Sequence record: NC_100371.1
Direction: 5' to 3' (one strand)
DNA length: 64,000 bases
Origin: a phage
Every line of letters begins with the position of its first letter. Within the stretch, counting starts at the first letter, position 1. Under the pieces are notes generated by a model. It had not been told where the DNA came from. It searched no databases and worked only from the letters and a program-made list of their open reading frames with translations. A program made the position numbers and the translations under genes. Shown here one piece after another: positions 29,873 through 44,463 of the stretch.

Positions 29873-30679
29873 TTGAGCAAGAAAGAGTCCAACGACAAAT
29901 ATTACACAGACCCCGAGTATGCAGAATATCTTGTTGGTAAAGTAAAAGGTAAGTATGGGAATTGTGCATACGTTGAGCCTTCTGCTGGAAAGGGTTCTTT
30001 TTCAAAACTATTTTCAGAGATACTGTCGTATGATTTGGTACCAGATCCTGAATTTGAAGGCCCAACCCCGTGTATTAAGGCAAACTTCTTAGAGGTGTAC
30101 CCCAAGGCCGATGTATTCATAGGTAATCCTCCATTCGGCAAAAATTCGTCTTTAGCTTGCAAGTTCTTTAACCACTGTGCATCATTGCTAGAGCCTGGTG
30201 GAGCTATAGCCTTCATCTTGCCACGGACTTTTGAAAAAATATTTTTTGCAAACAAACTGGACATGTCGATGCACCTTATTTACAGCGAAAGGTGCCCCAA
30301 GAACTCGTTTTTACTTAACGGCAAACCTTATGACGTGCCATGTGTTTTCCAAATTTGGGAGAAAAAGGTGTGCAATAGGGACCCTGTAGAGATCGGGGAG
30401 AATAAGTTATTTTCTTTTAGCACACCGGACGATTACGACTTCTGTATAAGACGTGTTGGGTATAATGCTGGGAAAGTATTGGGAGAGGATGACCCAAAAT
30501 CTGAAGAATCAACATATTTCATAAAATCTTTAGTTGATGGTGTTGACAGAGTGTTTGCTGAGTGCTATTCTTCTTTTCAAGAAGAAGCAGGTAAGACTGC
30601 TGGAATGAAGAGTATAGGCAAGAAAGAACTACAATACATTTTGGAGACCAGGTATGATCAAAAGTATAGACTTGACTAA
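29873..30679 (+). CDS. DNA N6-adenine methyltransferase (orphan, no cognate nuclease seen)
   Basis: Motif I EPSAGKGSF, motif IV FIGNPPFG; ORF opens with TTG inside the terminator, likely start TTG 29873 after GGAGG. Confidence 0.6.
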   Translation: MSKKESNDKYYTDPEYAEYLVGKVKGKYGNCAYVEPSAGKGSFSKLFSEILSYDLVPDPEFEGPTPCIKANFLEVYPKADVFIGNPPFGKNSSLACKFFNHCASLLEPGGAIAFILPRTFEKIFFANKLDMSMHLIYSERCPKNSFLLNGKPYDVPCVFQIWEKKVCNRDPVEIGENKLFSFSTPDDYDFCIRRVGYNAGKVLGEDDPKSEESTYFIKSLVDGVDRVFAECYSSFQEEAGKTAGMKSIGKKELQYILETRYDQKYRLD

Positions 30680-31112
30680 AGAGCTTACTGATGCAAAAGC
30701 TTTTGGTGAGACAGCTGTGCAAAGGGGGCAGGCTATGGGGCTGGCACTACCTTTTGTCTTAAAAGAGCATTTTACAGATTTTCAGCTTATCCGTGGTGAA
30801 AAGGGGATGCTTATTCTGGAGCATAAGCTGAGTAAGAAACGTTATAAAGTTGTTTTTAATTCTAAAGCTCCAACAAAACTTGGATTCAGAACTTACAATC
30901 TCAACCCTTCTTATACTAAGGGTGTTGGAAGAGTGGAACAGCAACATCTCAGTGCTAGAGCTTCTTTAGCCCCTTTGATGCTAAATTTCTCAGGTGTTGC
31001 TTTGGGATACCTGGATAAGAAAAGAGTTCTTCATGTTCGTTTTACAGACTTCGTAACGCTTTTAGCTAACAACGAAGTAGATGAAAAGGGACGTGTAAAA
31101 ACAAACTTCTAA
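30654..31112 (+). CDS. hypothetical protein
   Basis: 152-aa ORF. Confidence 0.4.
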   Translation: MIKSIDLTKELTDAKAFGETAVQRGQAMGLALPFVLKEHFTDFQLIRGEKGMLILEHKLSKKRYKVVFNSKAPTKLGFRTYNLNPSYTKGVGRVEQQHLSARASLAPLMLNFSGVALGYLDKKRVLHVRFTDFVTLLANNEVDEKGRVKTNF

Positions 31113-31127
31113 TAACGTGCAGTATGA

Positions 31128-31331
31128 TTGGAGACCGCAATGACACCAGAGTTAACAATTCCAGACAGCTTTTCAGAAAGCTTTATCCCAGAAATGATGA
31201 AGAAGATGCAATCACTGCTTGATCAGATTGAGGAGGCTGTTTGGGAAGACGATGCTGTAGTAGCTAACGAGCTGGTAGATAAGTGTAAAAGTATTATTGA
31301 TGCAATTGAAGAATACCACGGAGGTTTTTAA
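31128..31331 (+). CDS. hypothetical protein
   Basis: 67-aa acidic ORF with RBS. Confidence 0.35.
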   Translation: METAMTPELTIPDSFSESFIPEMMKKMQSLLDQIEEAVWEDDAVVANELVDKCKSIIDAIEEYHGGF

Positions 31332-31933
31332 TGGATATTATTGTTCTTAATGCTCCACCAAGTTCTGGAAAAGACCATATCGCAGATCTTTTGTTGGAAG
31401 CCATTCCAAACTCGCATCACCGCGAGGTAAAGGAAATGCTATTCAGTGTGGCAATTAAGGCAGCGGGTATTTCACCACAGTTGTGGAATGCACTCTATGA
31501 TCGCCGCTACAAAGAAGAACCGTGCCCGTTCTTAATGATAGACGGCAAGCATGTTTCTCCGCGAGAATGGATGATCCATTGTAGTGAAAATCTGATTAAA
31601 CCTATCTTTGGTGAAGACGCTTTCGGTAAGGCCGCAGTCGCATCCTTGAAGAAAGATTTCCCTGAAGGTAAAGGGGTTGTTGTTTACTCCGATGGTGGCT
31701 TCAAAGAGGAGCTGGCATGCCTTGGCGAGTACGCATACAGCACAGGTGGCGATCTTCTACTGTTCCGTATCCACCGTGCAGGATATGATTGGGGAAATGA
31801 TTCCAGAACTTACCTTAGCCTAGAGAAGAACGGGATAAAAGGTATCGAGTTTGATGTTGTTAACCCTGAGGGGTCTCCTTGGGAGTGCGCATCTGAGATT
31901 GTGTGCAAGTATATTGATGCTAAAGAGGTCTGA
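31331..31933 (+). CDS. deoxynucleoside monophosphate kinase-like P-loop kinase
   Basis: P-loop LNAPPSSGKDHIADLL resembling T4 gene 1 dNMP kinase (SGVKRSGKDTTADFI). Confidence 0.5.
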   Translation: MDIIVLNAPPSSGKDHIADLLLEAIPNSHHREVKEMLFSVAIKAAGISPQLWNALYDRRYKEEPCPFLMIDGKHVSPREWMIHCSENLIKPIFGEDAFGKAAVASLKKDFPEGKGVVVYSDGGFKEELACLGEYAYSTGGDLLLFRIHRAGYDWGNDSRTYLSLEKNGIKGIEFDVVNPEGSPWECASEIVCKYIDAKEV

Positions 31934-31938
31934 GAACA

Positions 31939-42767: not shown

Positions 42768-42828
42768 AGGCAAATGAGAATCAGGTTTAAATAGATCGCT
42801 TTTAACTTTCCAACATTAAGGACCTCAC

Positions 42829-43878
42829 ATGAATTTAACACCTCGCAGCACCATGGTACACGGCATGAAAGAAAAACAGAACGGCTTCGAACCGATGAGT
42901 AATAAAATGTTTGGTATGCCTGGTGGTATTATGGAAACATACAGCTACCCAACGCCAGTTGTTGACCACGTGCTTTATATTGACGATCTTGATGATTTGC
43001 AGGATCATATGTCCCGTTTGCAAACAATTCGTATGGCACAGCCGGAAGAAAGTATCCGTGTAATTGTTAACAGCCCTGGTGGTTGCGTCCACATTGCCAT
43101 GGCGTATTTGCAGGCATTCCGCGAGTCTCAGGCAAGCGTTGTTGTACACGCTGAAGGAATGTGCTGCTCAGCAGGAACAATCTTATGGCTGGGTTGCAAA
43201 GAACGAACTGTGGCTCCGGACACAGAGTTTATGTTCCACTACTATCAAGGTGGCACCTATGGCAACGGTGTGAACATGAATACTCAGGTCAACTACTGGA
43301 AGAAACGTTTTGAACGCCTGATCGAAAAATACTACGGTGGGGTTCTGACAGAAGATGAGATCGCATCCATCACGGCTGGTGGGGAAGTGTGGTTGGATGG
43401 AGAAGAGCTGGCAGCTCGAACTGGTGCTATCATTCTGGACGATGAAAACATTCAGCGTATTCAGAATGGGCAGAAACCGAAAAAGCTTTTGGCAAAAAGT
43501 GATGAAGAAGGTGTGCTAGGCGAAGCAGGCCTGCCAGAGATTCACCAATGCACATCTCTGGACGAGCTGGTTCACGCTGTTGAGTCTGCAAAAGCAAATG
43601 GTCTGAAAGGTGATGTTCACACTGTGTTCCTGAATCTGCAGATGGAGAGTGGTGAGACCGTTAAGATTGCACTGGGTGAGATTACCTCGGAAGATCTGCA
43701 GCGATTCTCTGTGGTAGAGCTTCAGGACATTTTGTCCCAATTGAAAACCACCCTGAACGGAGGTGAAGAAGTTCAGGTTAAAGATAAGACCCGCAAGCGT
43801 CTGGTGGACAATATTATTAAAACAGCAAAAGAGCTCAATGAAAAAATCCTGGGCGCAGGAATTATCGAAGAAGCTTAA
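42829..43878 (+). CDS. ClpP/S14-like serine peptidase with about 150-aa C-terminal extension
   Basis: VNSPGG and Ser nucleophile context MCCSAGT, His in FMFHYYQG; acidic helical C-terminal region. Confidence 0.55.
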   Translation: MNLTPRSTMVHGMKEKQNGFEPMSNKMFGMPGGIMETYSYPTPVVDHVLYIDDLDDLQDHMSRLQTIRMAQPEESIRVIVNSPGGCVHIAMAYLQAFRESQASVVVHAEGMCCSAGTILWLGCKERTVAPDTEFMFHYYQGGTYGNGVNMNTQVNYWKKRFERLIEKYYGGVLTEDEIASITAGGEVWLDGEELAARTGAIILDDENIQRIQNGQKPKKLLAKSDEEGVLGEAGLPEIHQCTSLDELVHAVESAKANGLKGDVHTVFLNLQMESGETVKIALGEITSEDLQRFSVVELQDILSQLKTTLNGGEEVQVKDKTRKRLVDNIIKTAKELNEKILGAGIIEEA

Positions 43879-43891
43879 ACATTAATCTTAA

Positions 43892-43914
43892 AGCCCTCTT
43901 CGGAGGGCTTTTAT
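43892..43914 (+). terminator. Rho-independent terminator
   Basis: GCCCTC-ttcg-GAGGGC followed by TTTTAT. Confidence 0.65.
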
Positions 43915-43929
43915 GATCTGGAGATTTGC

Positions 43930-44463
43930 ATGACTTGTGCTAGAAAACCTGACGAACAACGTAACGCCTATGATGAATATGTGACACCAGAGTGGTGTGC
44001 AGAAGGGTTGTATGACCTCATTCCGTTCCCAGAAGATTGGACCTATTTGGAGCCTTGCAGGAATAGCGCCTCAGGTGTGTTCTACTCCCGTATGCCGTTA
44101 GGATCTGCATGGGGAGAAATCCAAGAAGGTGTTGACTATCTGAATACAGAATACAACCATGTTGACTGTATTATCACCAACCCGCCGTACAGCCTGGCTC
44201 GTGAGTTTGTGGACAAGGCGTTGAAAGATGCCGACGTAGTTATTATGCTTTTGCGTCTTAATTTTCTGGAAAGCAAGGCCAGATTTGAATGGTGGCTTGA
44301 TAATGCCCCTACCACTGTGATCACAATATCTAAGCGTCCATCATTCCAATCGAATGGCAGAACTGACGGGCAAGCATATGCATATTTTGTGTGGGACAAG
44401 AAGAACCGTTTAGACCTACCACCATTTATGTGGTTGGCACCTCCGGAGGCAGACTTGAAATGA
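43930..44463 (+). CDS. phage-type DNA N6-adenine methyltransferase (Dam-like, orphan)
   Basis: 177 aa with IITNPPYS (NPPY) catalytic motif. Confidence 0.6.
   Translation: MTCARKPDEQRNAYDEYVTPEWCAEGLYDLIPFPEDWTYLEPCRNSASGVFYSRMPLGSAWGEIQEGVDYLNTEYNHVDCIITNPPYSLAREFVDKALKDADVVIMLLRLNFLESKARFEWWLDNAPTTVITISKRPSFQSNGRTDGQAYAYFVWDKKNRLDLPPFMWLAPPEADLK

Follow-up and report, generated by a model that had tools for sequence, protein, structure and literature searches.

The stretch of phage DNA analysed here, 64,000 nucleotides of sequence record NC_100371.1 and hereafter called the window, contains five genes for known or predicted nucleic-acid enzymes. Two encode solitary methyltransferases (methyltransferase 1 and methyltransferase 2) and three encode nucleases, of which one lies within a group I intron of the gene for the large terminase (TerL), one has a zinc-finger HNH core, and one is of the endonuclease VII (Endo VII) type. 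A first-pass annotation, made from the letters alone, had described these genes as a heavy load of nucleic-acid-modifying and selfish genes. All five open reading frames (ORFs) lie where it had placed them, with Endo VII domains in the products of the ORFs at 11846 and 28066 and an HNH core in that at 24918 (Table 1). With regard to their nature, we consider it very probable that the five genes belong to three unrelated classes that are all typical of the phage lineage, namely one selfish TerL intron, two inherited housekeeping nucleases, and two fixed solitary methyltransferases.

Over its whole length, the region from 29000 to 45000 shares 99.7% identity with Escherichia phage vB_EcoM-ECP32 (ECP32), and it matches 144 phage records, nearly all of them from Vequintavirus, i.e. 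rV5/FV3-like myophages of E. coli. Judged from these matches, the source phage is an ordinary Vequintavirus. The layout of the window is likewise typical of the group: structural and packaging genes on the minus strand come first, then a cluster of tRNA genes, and then replication and nucleotide-metabolism genes on the plus strand. The five genes carry identical or similar names in many public Vequintavirus records.

Table 1. Positions of the genes and elements discussed in the text (window coordinates unless a contig is named; aa, amino acids; nt, nucleotides).
Feature	Position	Strand	Description
TerL exon 2	10650..11771	-	codons 143-515 and stop codon; 98.8% identity to the 3' part of ECP32 TerL; Pfam Terminase_6C
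Group I intron	11772..12654	-	883 nt, between TerL codons 142 and 143; Rfam RF00028
Intron-encoded endonuclease (putative)	11846..12436	-	196 aa; N-terminal CxxC zinc-ribbon region and Endo VII-type beta-beta-alpha-Me nuclease domain
TerL exon 1	12655..13080	-	142 codons, ending in ...GAG GGT; aligns to the 5' part of ECP32 TerL; Pfam Terminase_6N
Zinc-finger HNH nuclease (predicted)	24918..25382	+	154 aa; core gene heading the exonuclease/recombination block
T4 gp49-type Endo VII (predicted)	28066..28671	+	201 aa; Pfam PF02945, 31.7 bits (cut-off 23.6)
Methyltransferase 1 (predicted)	29873..30679	+	268 aa; gamma-class amino-methyltransferase with C-terminal M.TaqI-like domain
152-aa ORF, no assigned function	30654..31112	+	overlaps the end of methyltransferase 1 by 26 nt; PHROG 9938 (unknown function)
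Methyltransferase 2 (predicted)	43930..44463	+	177 aa; minimal amino-methyltransferase consisting of the catalytic domain; NPPY as motif IV
152-aa homologue, contig L004	3569-4000		
152-aa homologue, contig L009	3591-4001		
152-aa homologue, contig L015	3501-3911		

The large terminase gene of ECP32 is a single ORF of 1548 bp without an intron, whereas the copy in the window is interrupted by 883 nt and its unspliced reading frame terminates at codon 143. At the junction the window reads TTC GAT GAG GGT, followed by the intron and then by ACG CAA TTC, where ECP32 has TTC GAT GAA GGC ACG CAA TTC; the intron-less TerL site of the ECP32 type reads ...TTCGATGAAGGCACGCAATTC... in the same place. 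When the two exons are joined (13080-12655 plus 11771-10650) they amount to 1548 nt and encode 515 aa, and 515 of the 515 residues are as in ECP32 TerL. Comparison of the junction with ECP32 places the 5' splice site after a U and lets the intron end in G. In the cmscan alignment this U is part of a U-G pair in P1, where the end of exon 1, GAGGGU, pairs with GCUCUC of the intron.

The intron aligns to the full Rfam model RF00028 (1-253) with a score of 47.9 bits and an E-value of 9e-11. The curated gathering score of the model is 50 bits, and the fact that the window copy stays 2 bits under it speaks against the assignment; in phage LL12, the allele of this intron that lacks the ORF reaches 79.4 bits. 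Matches to the intron core with 80-90% identity (blastn) were obtained in 295 phage records, including phages named Tequatrovirus, Yersinia and Enterobacteria. Among 119 relatives with this TerL region, 29 carry the intron together with its ORF at 97-100% identity, and among 60 of them sampled at even spacing, about 12 (rV5 included) have an ORF-less intron of approximately 320 nt and about 32 have no intron. Three allelic states of the TerL intron are accordingly present among the relatives: none, ORF-less, and with ORF. The first-pass annotation had called this nuclease clearly intron-associated, which is borne out both by the position of the ORF and by its sporadic occurrence.

The protein encoded by the intron scores 76.1 bits against Pfam Endonuclease_7 (cut-off 23.6) and matches Endo VII PHROGs, while its N-terminus gives a Lar-like match. 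Its closest solved relative is R.Hpy99I, and T4 Endo VII is matched in the catalytic core only. The ORF stands in place of the short P8 hairpin of the ORF-less LL12 allele, outside the catalytic core of the intron; on the minus strand, GGAGGG (12437-12446) precedes its ATG, and the ORF ends with a stop codon (11846-11856) that is part of the conserved core segment AAGAUAUAGUC. The ratio of nonsynonymous to synonymous substitution rates (dN/dS) relative to phage DrSchubert is 0.085. Taken by its sequence, the 196-aa protein would be the homing endonuclease of the sole mobile element in the window, with putative cleavage and homing activity. The Shine-Dalgarno-like GGAGGG of the ORF belongs to the strand closing P3, and translation of the intron ORF could be coupled to folding of the intron.

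In the life of the phage, the intron would splice out of the mRNA and restore TerL, and in a mixed infection terminase alleles without the intron would be targets of the endonuclease, repair of the cut then copying the intron in. The T4 td, nrdB and nrdD introns with I-TevI-III, and HNH intron enzymes such as I-HmuI, are suitable comparators, with the reservation that the likeness is one of description. They have in common with the window a group I intron in an essential phage gene, an endonuclease ORF that loops out from a peripheral helix, and a polymorphism of intron-less, ORF-less and ORF-containing alleles. They differ in that the ORF of the window sits in P8 and its nuclease is of the Endo VII type.

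Closer at hand, the TerL introns of rV5 and other Vequintavirinae resemble that of the window in gene and in kind of element, and rV5 itself has the ORF-less form at this site; rV5 TerL has been reported in three segments (PMC3606486), as compared with the one TerL intron of the window phage, and there is otherwise no difference of substance. For rV5, terminase introns with a homing endonuclease have been published (Kropinski et al. 2013, PMC3606486). Buttimer et al. (2020, PMC7344957) demonstrated by reverse transcription PCR that the terminase intron of CB7, a related phage, is spliced, and a joined TerL coding sequence plus a 'putative homing endonuclease' are annotated in the records of DrSchubert (BASEL) and LL12. 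The TerL intron of the window presents the classic picture of an intron with a homing endonuclease, and it was previously known.

The ORF at 24918 stays below the Pfam HNH cut-off (PF01844, 13.8 vs 21.4 bits), but it matches HNH PHROG 5200 at 242 bits together with seven further HNH PHROGs, and weak matches were also found to IscB (HNH domain) and to a group II intron maturase (endonuclease domain). The residues of its core, CxxC...CHE...CxxCH...H (C51xxC54, C65-H66-E67, C85xxC88-H89, and H93), are without exception the same in the window and in PVP-SE1, a phage of the genus Seunavirus. The gene has homologues throughout the subfamily at about 50% identity, in PVP-SE1 directly upstream of the exonuclease gene, and its dN/dS relative to FV3 is 0.011. 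By these features it is a conserved zinc-finger HNH nuclease and an inherited gene with a putative housekeeping role.

The protein encoded at 28066 belongs to the same family as T4 endonuclease VII (gp49; PDB 1e7d/2qnc). It aligns to residues 37-154 of the 157 residues in 1e7d with an E-value of 4e-5, and the alignment includes the non-catalytic C-terminal/dimerisation region. In T4 Endo VII the catalytic roles of the D/H, N and E residues are well established. The LDHDH motif of the window protein is aligned to LDHDH of the T4 enzyme, and the N and E of its ...CTNTFEG to those of ...CNAAEG. The protein exceeds T4 Endo VII by about 45 residues, being extended at either end, and two of the zinc-ligand cysteines of the T4 enzyme have no counterpart at the aligned positions. 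Homologues occur across the genera of the subfamily at 45-64% identity, they are labelled 'packaging and recombination endonuclease' in BASEL records, and dN/dS relative to FV3 is 0.053. The gene product is the probable junction-resolving nuclease for packaging and recombination, and in this predicted activity it would resolve branched DNA ahead of packaging. A resolvase had been offered in the first-pass annotation as one alternative for the nucleases at 24918 and 28066, and for the latter this alternative is right.

The other alternative was that these two genes are free-standing homing endonucleases, which in that case would have risen to high frequency. HNH and Endo VII folds are indeed frequent among homing endonucleases, the intron-borne enzyme of the same window has an Endo VII domain, and sporadic free-standing HNH genes do occur in relatives (FV3_00083, FV3_00107, and gp104 and gp134 of PVP-SE1). 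Against this, each of the two genes is found in essentially all Vequintavirus records (about 118 at >=95% identity), and their identity across genera tracks the divergence of the phages. In PVP-SE1, as in the window, the HNH gene is followed by the exonuclease gene, two small genes, the Endo VII gene, a further small gene and the gene for the pol-exonuclease subunit, and the same order from HNH to pol-exonuclease is present in FV3. Comparison of the insertion sites with relatives consequently finds both genes in the same position, and absence of either gene from a collinear locus was not seen. In addition, the 28066 protein follows T4 Endo VII into the dimerisation region, whereas the intron enzyme shares the catalytic core only. 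Since both genes are syntenic subfamily-wide and under strong purifying selection, we reject them as homing endonucleases; the probability that one or both are of this kind is in our estimate very small indeed, and they are to be regarded as inherited housekeeping nucleases.

FV3-type relatives differ from the window in this part of the genome. In these phages an HNH gene (FV3_00107 in FV3) splits nrdD, adding about 800 bp, and another HNH gene is located upstream of the conserved one; the corresponding positions on contig L019 are 15222-15755 and 1-534. The window is without both, with an intact nrdD at 38234-40357 and no such gene at about 24420-24530. For the related phage CB7, 23 homing endonucleases have been reported (PMC7344957). 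Because the sporadic HNH genes of the FV3 and PVP-SE1 type are absent, the selfish load of the window is light, and its description as heavy was an overstatement; one mobile element is present, as compared with two more HNH genes in this region of FV3 and the number found in CB7.

Methyltransferase 1 contains the motifs that the first-pass annotation had reported, EPSAGKGSF (motif I, the S-adenosylmethionine loop) followed by GNPPFG (motif IV), and 47 homologues share the residues E45, P46, A48, G49, F53 and G94-G99 without exception. Translation from 29873 would begin at a TTG that GGAGG precedes by 4 nt; the N-terminal sequence of homologues is MSKKESNDKYY. The start of the longest ORF at 29843 (also TTG, and used in the ECP32 record) is located inside a terminator-like hairpin at 29833-29856 (plus strand; GGGAGGC-TTGC-GCCTCCC followed by a T-run) that separates the gene for the pol-exonuclease subunit from that for methyltransferase 1. 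Given the upstream GGAGG and the N-termini of the homologues, and with 29843 sitting in the hairpin, 29873 is the likelier start, in agreement with the first-pass annotation. The gene is fixed in Vequintavirus with a dN/dS of 0.032, has a Phapecoctavirus homologue at 54% identity, and is absent from PVP-SE1. In a large protein database 832 homologues were found, some on contigs that look like phage and others on contigs 0.2-0.5 Mb in length; where the homologues are labelled, the label is Pfam PF26055 Mtase_EDM2 (precomputed labels, mostly weak).

For methyltransferase 2 the previously noted NPPY is present in the form ITNPPYS. The gene occurs subfamily-wide, always beside a gene for a ClpP-like protease, its dN/dS is 0.015, and the protein belongs to PHROG 799 'DNA methyltransferase' (228 bits).

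Searches of solved structures by sequence returned only marginal M.TaqI hits for methyltransferase 1 (E-value 0.05) and nothing meaningful for methyltransferase 2, and since curated family cut-offs were not reached either, predicted structures were compared by fold. The model of methyltransferase 1 (predicted local distance difference test score, pLDDT, 91) has a Rossmann catalytic domain and a C-terminal DNA-recognition domain, and M.BseCI, MmeI, CamA and M.TaqI align with it over both domains (229-249 of 278 residues). Sequence identity to these enzymes is 15-18%, and methyltransferase 1 is far smaller (268 vs 382-751 aa). The model of methyltransferase 2 (pLDDT 89) combines the NPPY motif with an S-adenosylmethionine-binding Rossmann fold, and its top match is M.TaqI, followed by many M subunits of type I and type II DNA systems; as distinct from M.TaqI-like enzymes it has no recognition domain. 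It resembles the phage Dam-type methyltransferases (PF05869, TIGR01712) in size, in the NPPY motif and in phage origin, and one of its homologues carries PF05869, but its own scores are far under the cut-offs of these families and GATC is only a candidate specificity.

From these models both proteins are probably solitary amino-methyltransferases specific for DNA adenine, with the substrate and the target motifs deduced from likeness to known enzymes. Methyltransferase 1 would methylate adenine N6 of phage DNA at a short motif by way of its own M.TaqI-like recognition domain, and methyltransferase 2, a minimal and distantly Dam-like catalytic domain, would methylate adenine N6 of the same DNA, likewise at a specific short motif. 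Several observations weigh against this assignment. Methyltransferase 1 falls below the Pfam Eco57I cut-off (17.6 vs 25.3 bits) and has no NCBIfam hit, and eight of its homologues are likewise without Pfam or NCBIfam hits above cut-off; methyltransferase 2 falls below PF05869 (19.2 vs 28.1 bits) and TIGR01712 (16.1 vs 97), and its motif I is atypical, EPCRNSASG as compared with the family consensus EPCxGxG. The Rossmann cores of both proteins match rRNA and tRNA methyltransferases (METTL5, Erm, KsgA, PH1948) as well as they match DNA methyltransferases, some sources name the homologues of methyltransferase 1 'predicted RNA methylase', and no methylome or methylation data for Vequintavirus were found in the literature searched.

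With Rossmann cores that do not discriminate, the case for DNA as substrate rests on the match of the C-terminal domain for methyltransferase 1 and on the naming of the family for methyltransferase 2. One or both enzymes might instead act on RNA (adenine or guanine of rRNA, tRNA or mRNA) or on protein, for example in a reprogramming of translation. We regard this as quite improbable, as RNA methyltransferases align over about 150 residues of methyltransferase 1 and only adenine DNA methyltransferases extend over both of its domains, as the ranking of the fold matches and the PHROG of methyltransferase 2 are those of DNA enzymes, and as both genes are located within blocks for DNA replication and nucleotide metabolism.

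The first-pass annotation had further described both methyltransferases as orphans without an adjacent restriction partner. The flanking ORFs encode a pol-exonuclease subunit, the 152-aa protein, an NT5C-like protein, a ClpP-like protein and small proteins of no assigned function, and a nuclease domain was not recognised in any of them with Pfam or PHROGs. With regard to a recognisable restriction partner the description therefore stands, but for methyltransferase 1 the word orphan has to be qualified, since its gene overlaps that of a frequent companion, the 152-aa protein.

The two overlapping genes could work together as a two-gene module. The 152-aa protein would in that case be a partner of the methyltransferase, for instance a subunit for specificity or regulation, a small nuclease or an anti-defence factor. 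Apart from the overlap, the pair is adjacent in four contexts (Vequintavirus, Phapecoctavirus ESCO5, and contigs L009 and L015), in some of them with the order swapped: the 152-aa homologue lies upstream of the methyltransferase 1 homologue in ESCO5, where the primase/helicase and Pol I genes flank them, in L009, after nrdG, and in L015, where they are flanked by nrdB and glutaredoxin. In PVP-SE1 the orthologous slot contains neither gene, the 152-aa gene exhibits zero nonsynonymous changes relative to FV3, and for several members of both families the longest contigs are of identical length. On the other hand, the 152-aa gene occurs without a methyltransferase 1 homologue in L011-L014, and the methyltransferase 1 homologue without the 152-aa gene in L002, L005 and L006, which rules out an obligatory linkage. 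The linkage that does exist may in part be due to inherited synteny among related large myophages, and the 152-aa protein has no domain, motif or structural match in Pfam, PHROGs or the PDB (no Pfam hit, and nothing in the PDB for an 18-sequence profile at E-values up to 10). On balance a functional module seems unlikely. More speculative still is the notion that the pair is a small mobile cassette that has moved between the replication modules of large myophages, with the small protein as a new partner of the methyltransferase (specificity factor, regulator, counter-defence or toxin component); the methyltransferase family is the bacterial and phage relative of the methyltransferase domain of plant EDM2, and for this reason its substrate could be other than DNA adenine. 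The description of methyltransferase 1 as a solitary enzyme with a frequent neighbour is preferred.

As to the role of two solitary methyltransferases, anti-restriction self-methylation had been proposed, i.e. that together they form an effective device by which methylated phage DNA evades restriction in the host. Solitary phage methyltransferases without a nuclease partner, fixed and under purifying selection, are what such a device would look like. A ClaI digestion pattern of CB7 DNA is consistent with Dam-type methylation (PMC7344957), and GATC is not avoided in the window (370 sites, observed/expected ratio 1.07). However, each methyltransferase would mask its own motif only, and E. coli hosts supply Dam already. 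In the BASEL study the Vequintavirinae were found to be 'exceptionally susceptible' to restriction-modification systems, with no effective protection (PMC8594841), and the Vequintavirus phages tested in that study carry the same two methyltransferase genes. Sites for EcoRI (17) and EcoRV (21) are abundant in the window and, like GATC, not avoided. An effective anti-restriction device is for these reasons a doubtful explanation, and in its broad form, as general protection, it is not supported and is contradicted by the sensitivity reported in the BASEL study.

Counts over the whole window gave TCGA at expectation and GTAC depleted, with 98 sites observed vs 185 expected, and several GC-rich palindromes of six nucleotides are absent, e.g. 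CGATCG (0 vs 7.4 expected) and TGGCCA (0 vs 7.1). The missing palindromes suggest avoidance of sites rather than masking. As a clue to the targets of the methyltransferases, motif depletion was considered and discarded: expected counts are small, and neither GTAC nor the six-nucleotide motifs have any link with the methyltransferases.

More limited roles are possible for the two enzymes, since the ClaI pattern of CB7 is consistent with Dam-type methylation. They could mask a single motif, keep GATC fully methylated during rapid replication, or serve in replication, repair or packaging. At best they would mask a narrow set of sites and provide no general protection from restriction.

Some further observations concern the genome as a whole. 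Six tRNA genes are clustered at 14188-15123 on the minus strand and separate the spanin/terminase block from the early-gene block. Identity to ECP32 is 90.9% at 6344-11771 (portal to TerL exon 2), as compared with 98.9% at 15045-46340 (replication block), and judged by these alignments the lower value points to a structural module of mosaic history. A co-conversion tract around the intron was considered and rejected, since the mismatches to ECP32 do not fall off with distance and the structural block is more diverged as a whole. Finally, about 20 records of 'Campylobacter phage' (MG0656xx) are 95-98% identical to Vequintavirus phages of E. coli in every gene examined, which looks like mislabelling or carry-over and not like a genuine Campylobacter host.

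The central findings are already known, being annotated in public records and described in papers, and beyond correct annotation their importance is small. They do correct the start codon of methyltransferase 1 in some records (29873, not 29843), and they document a clean three-state polymorphism of a terminase intron in a group of phages that is widely used for biocontrol and therapy. One out of five selfish-looking genes is mobile, and it is the distribution among relatives, not the nuclease fold alone, that indicates a homing endonuclease.

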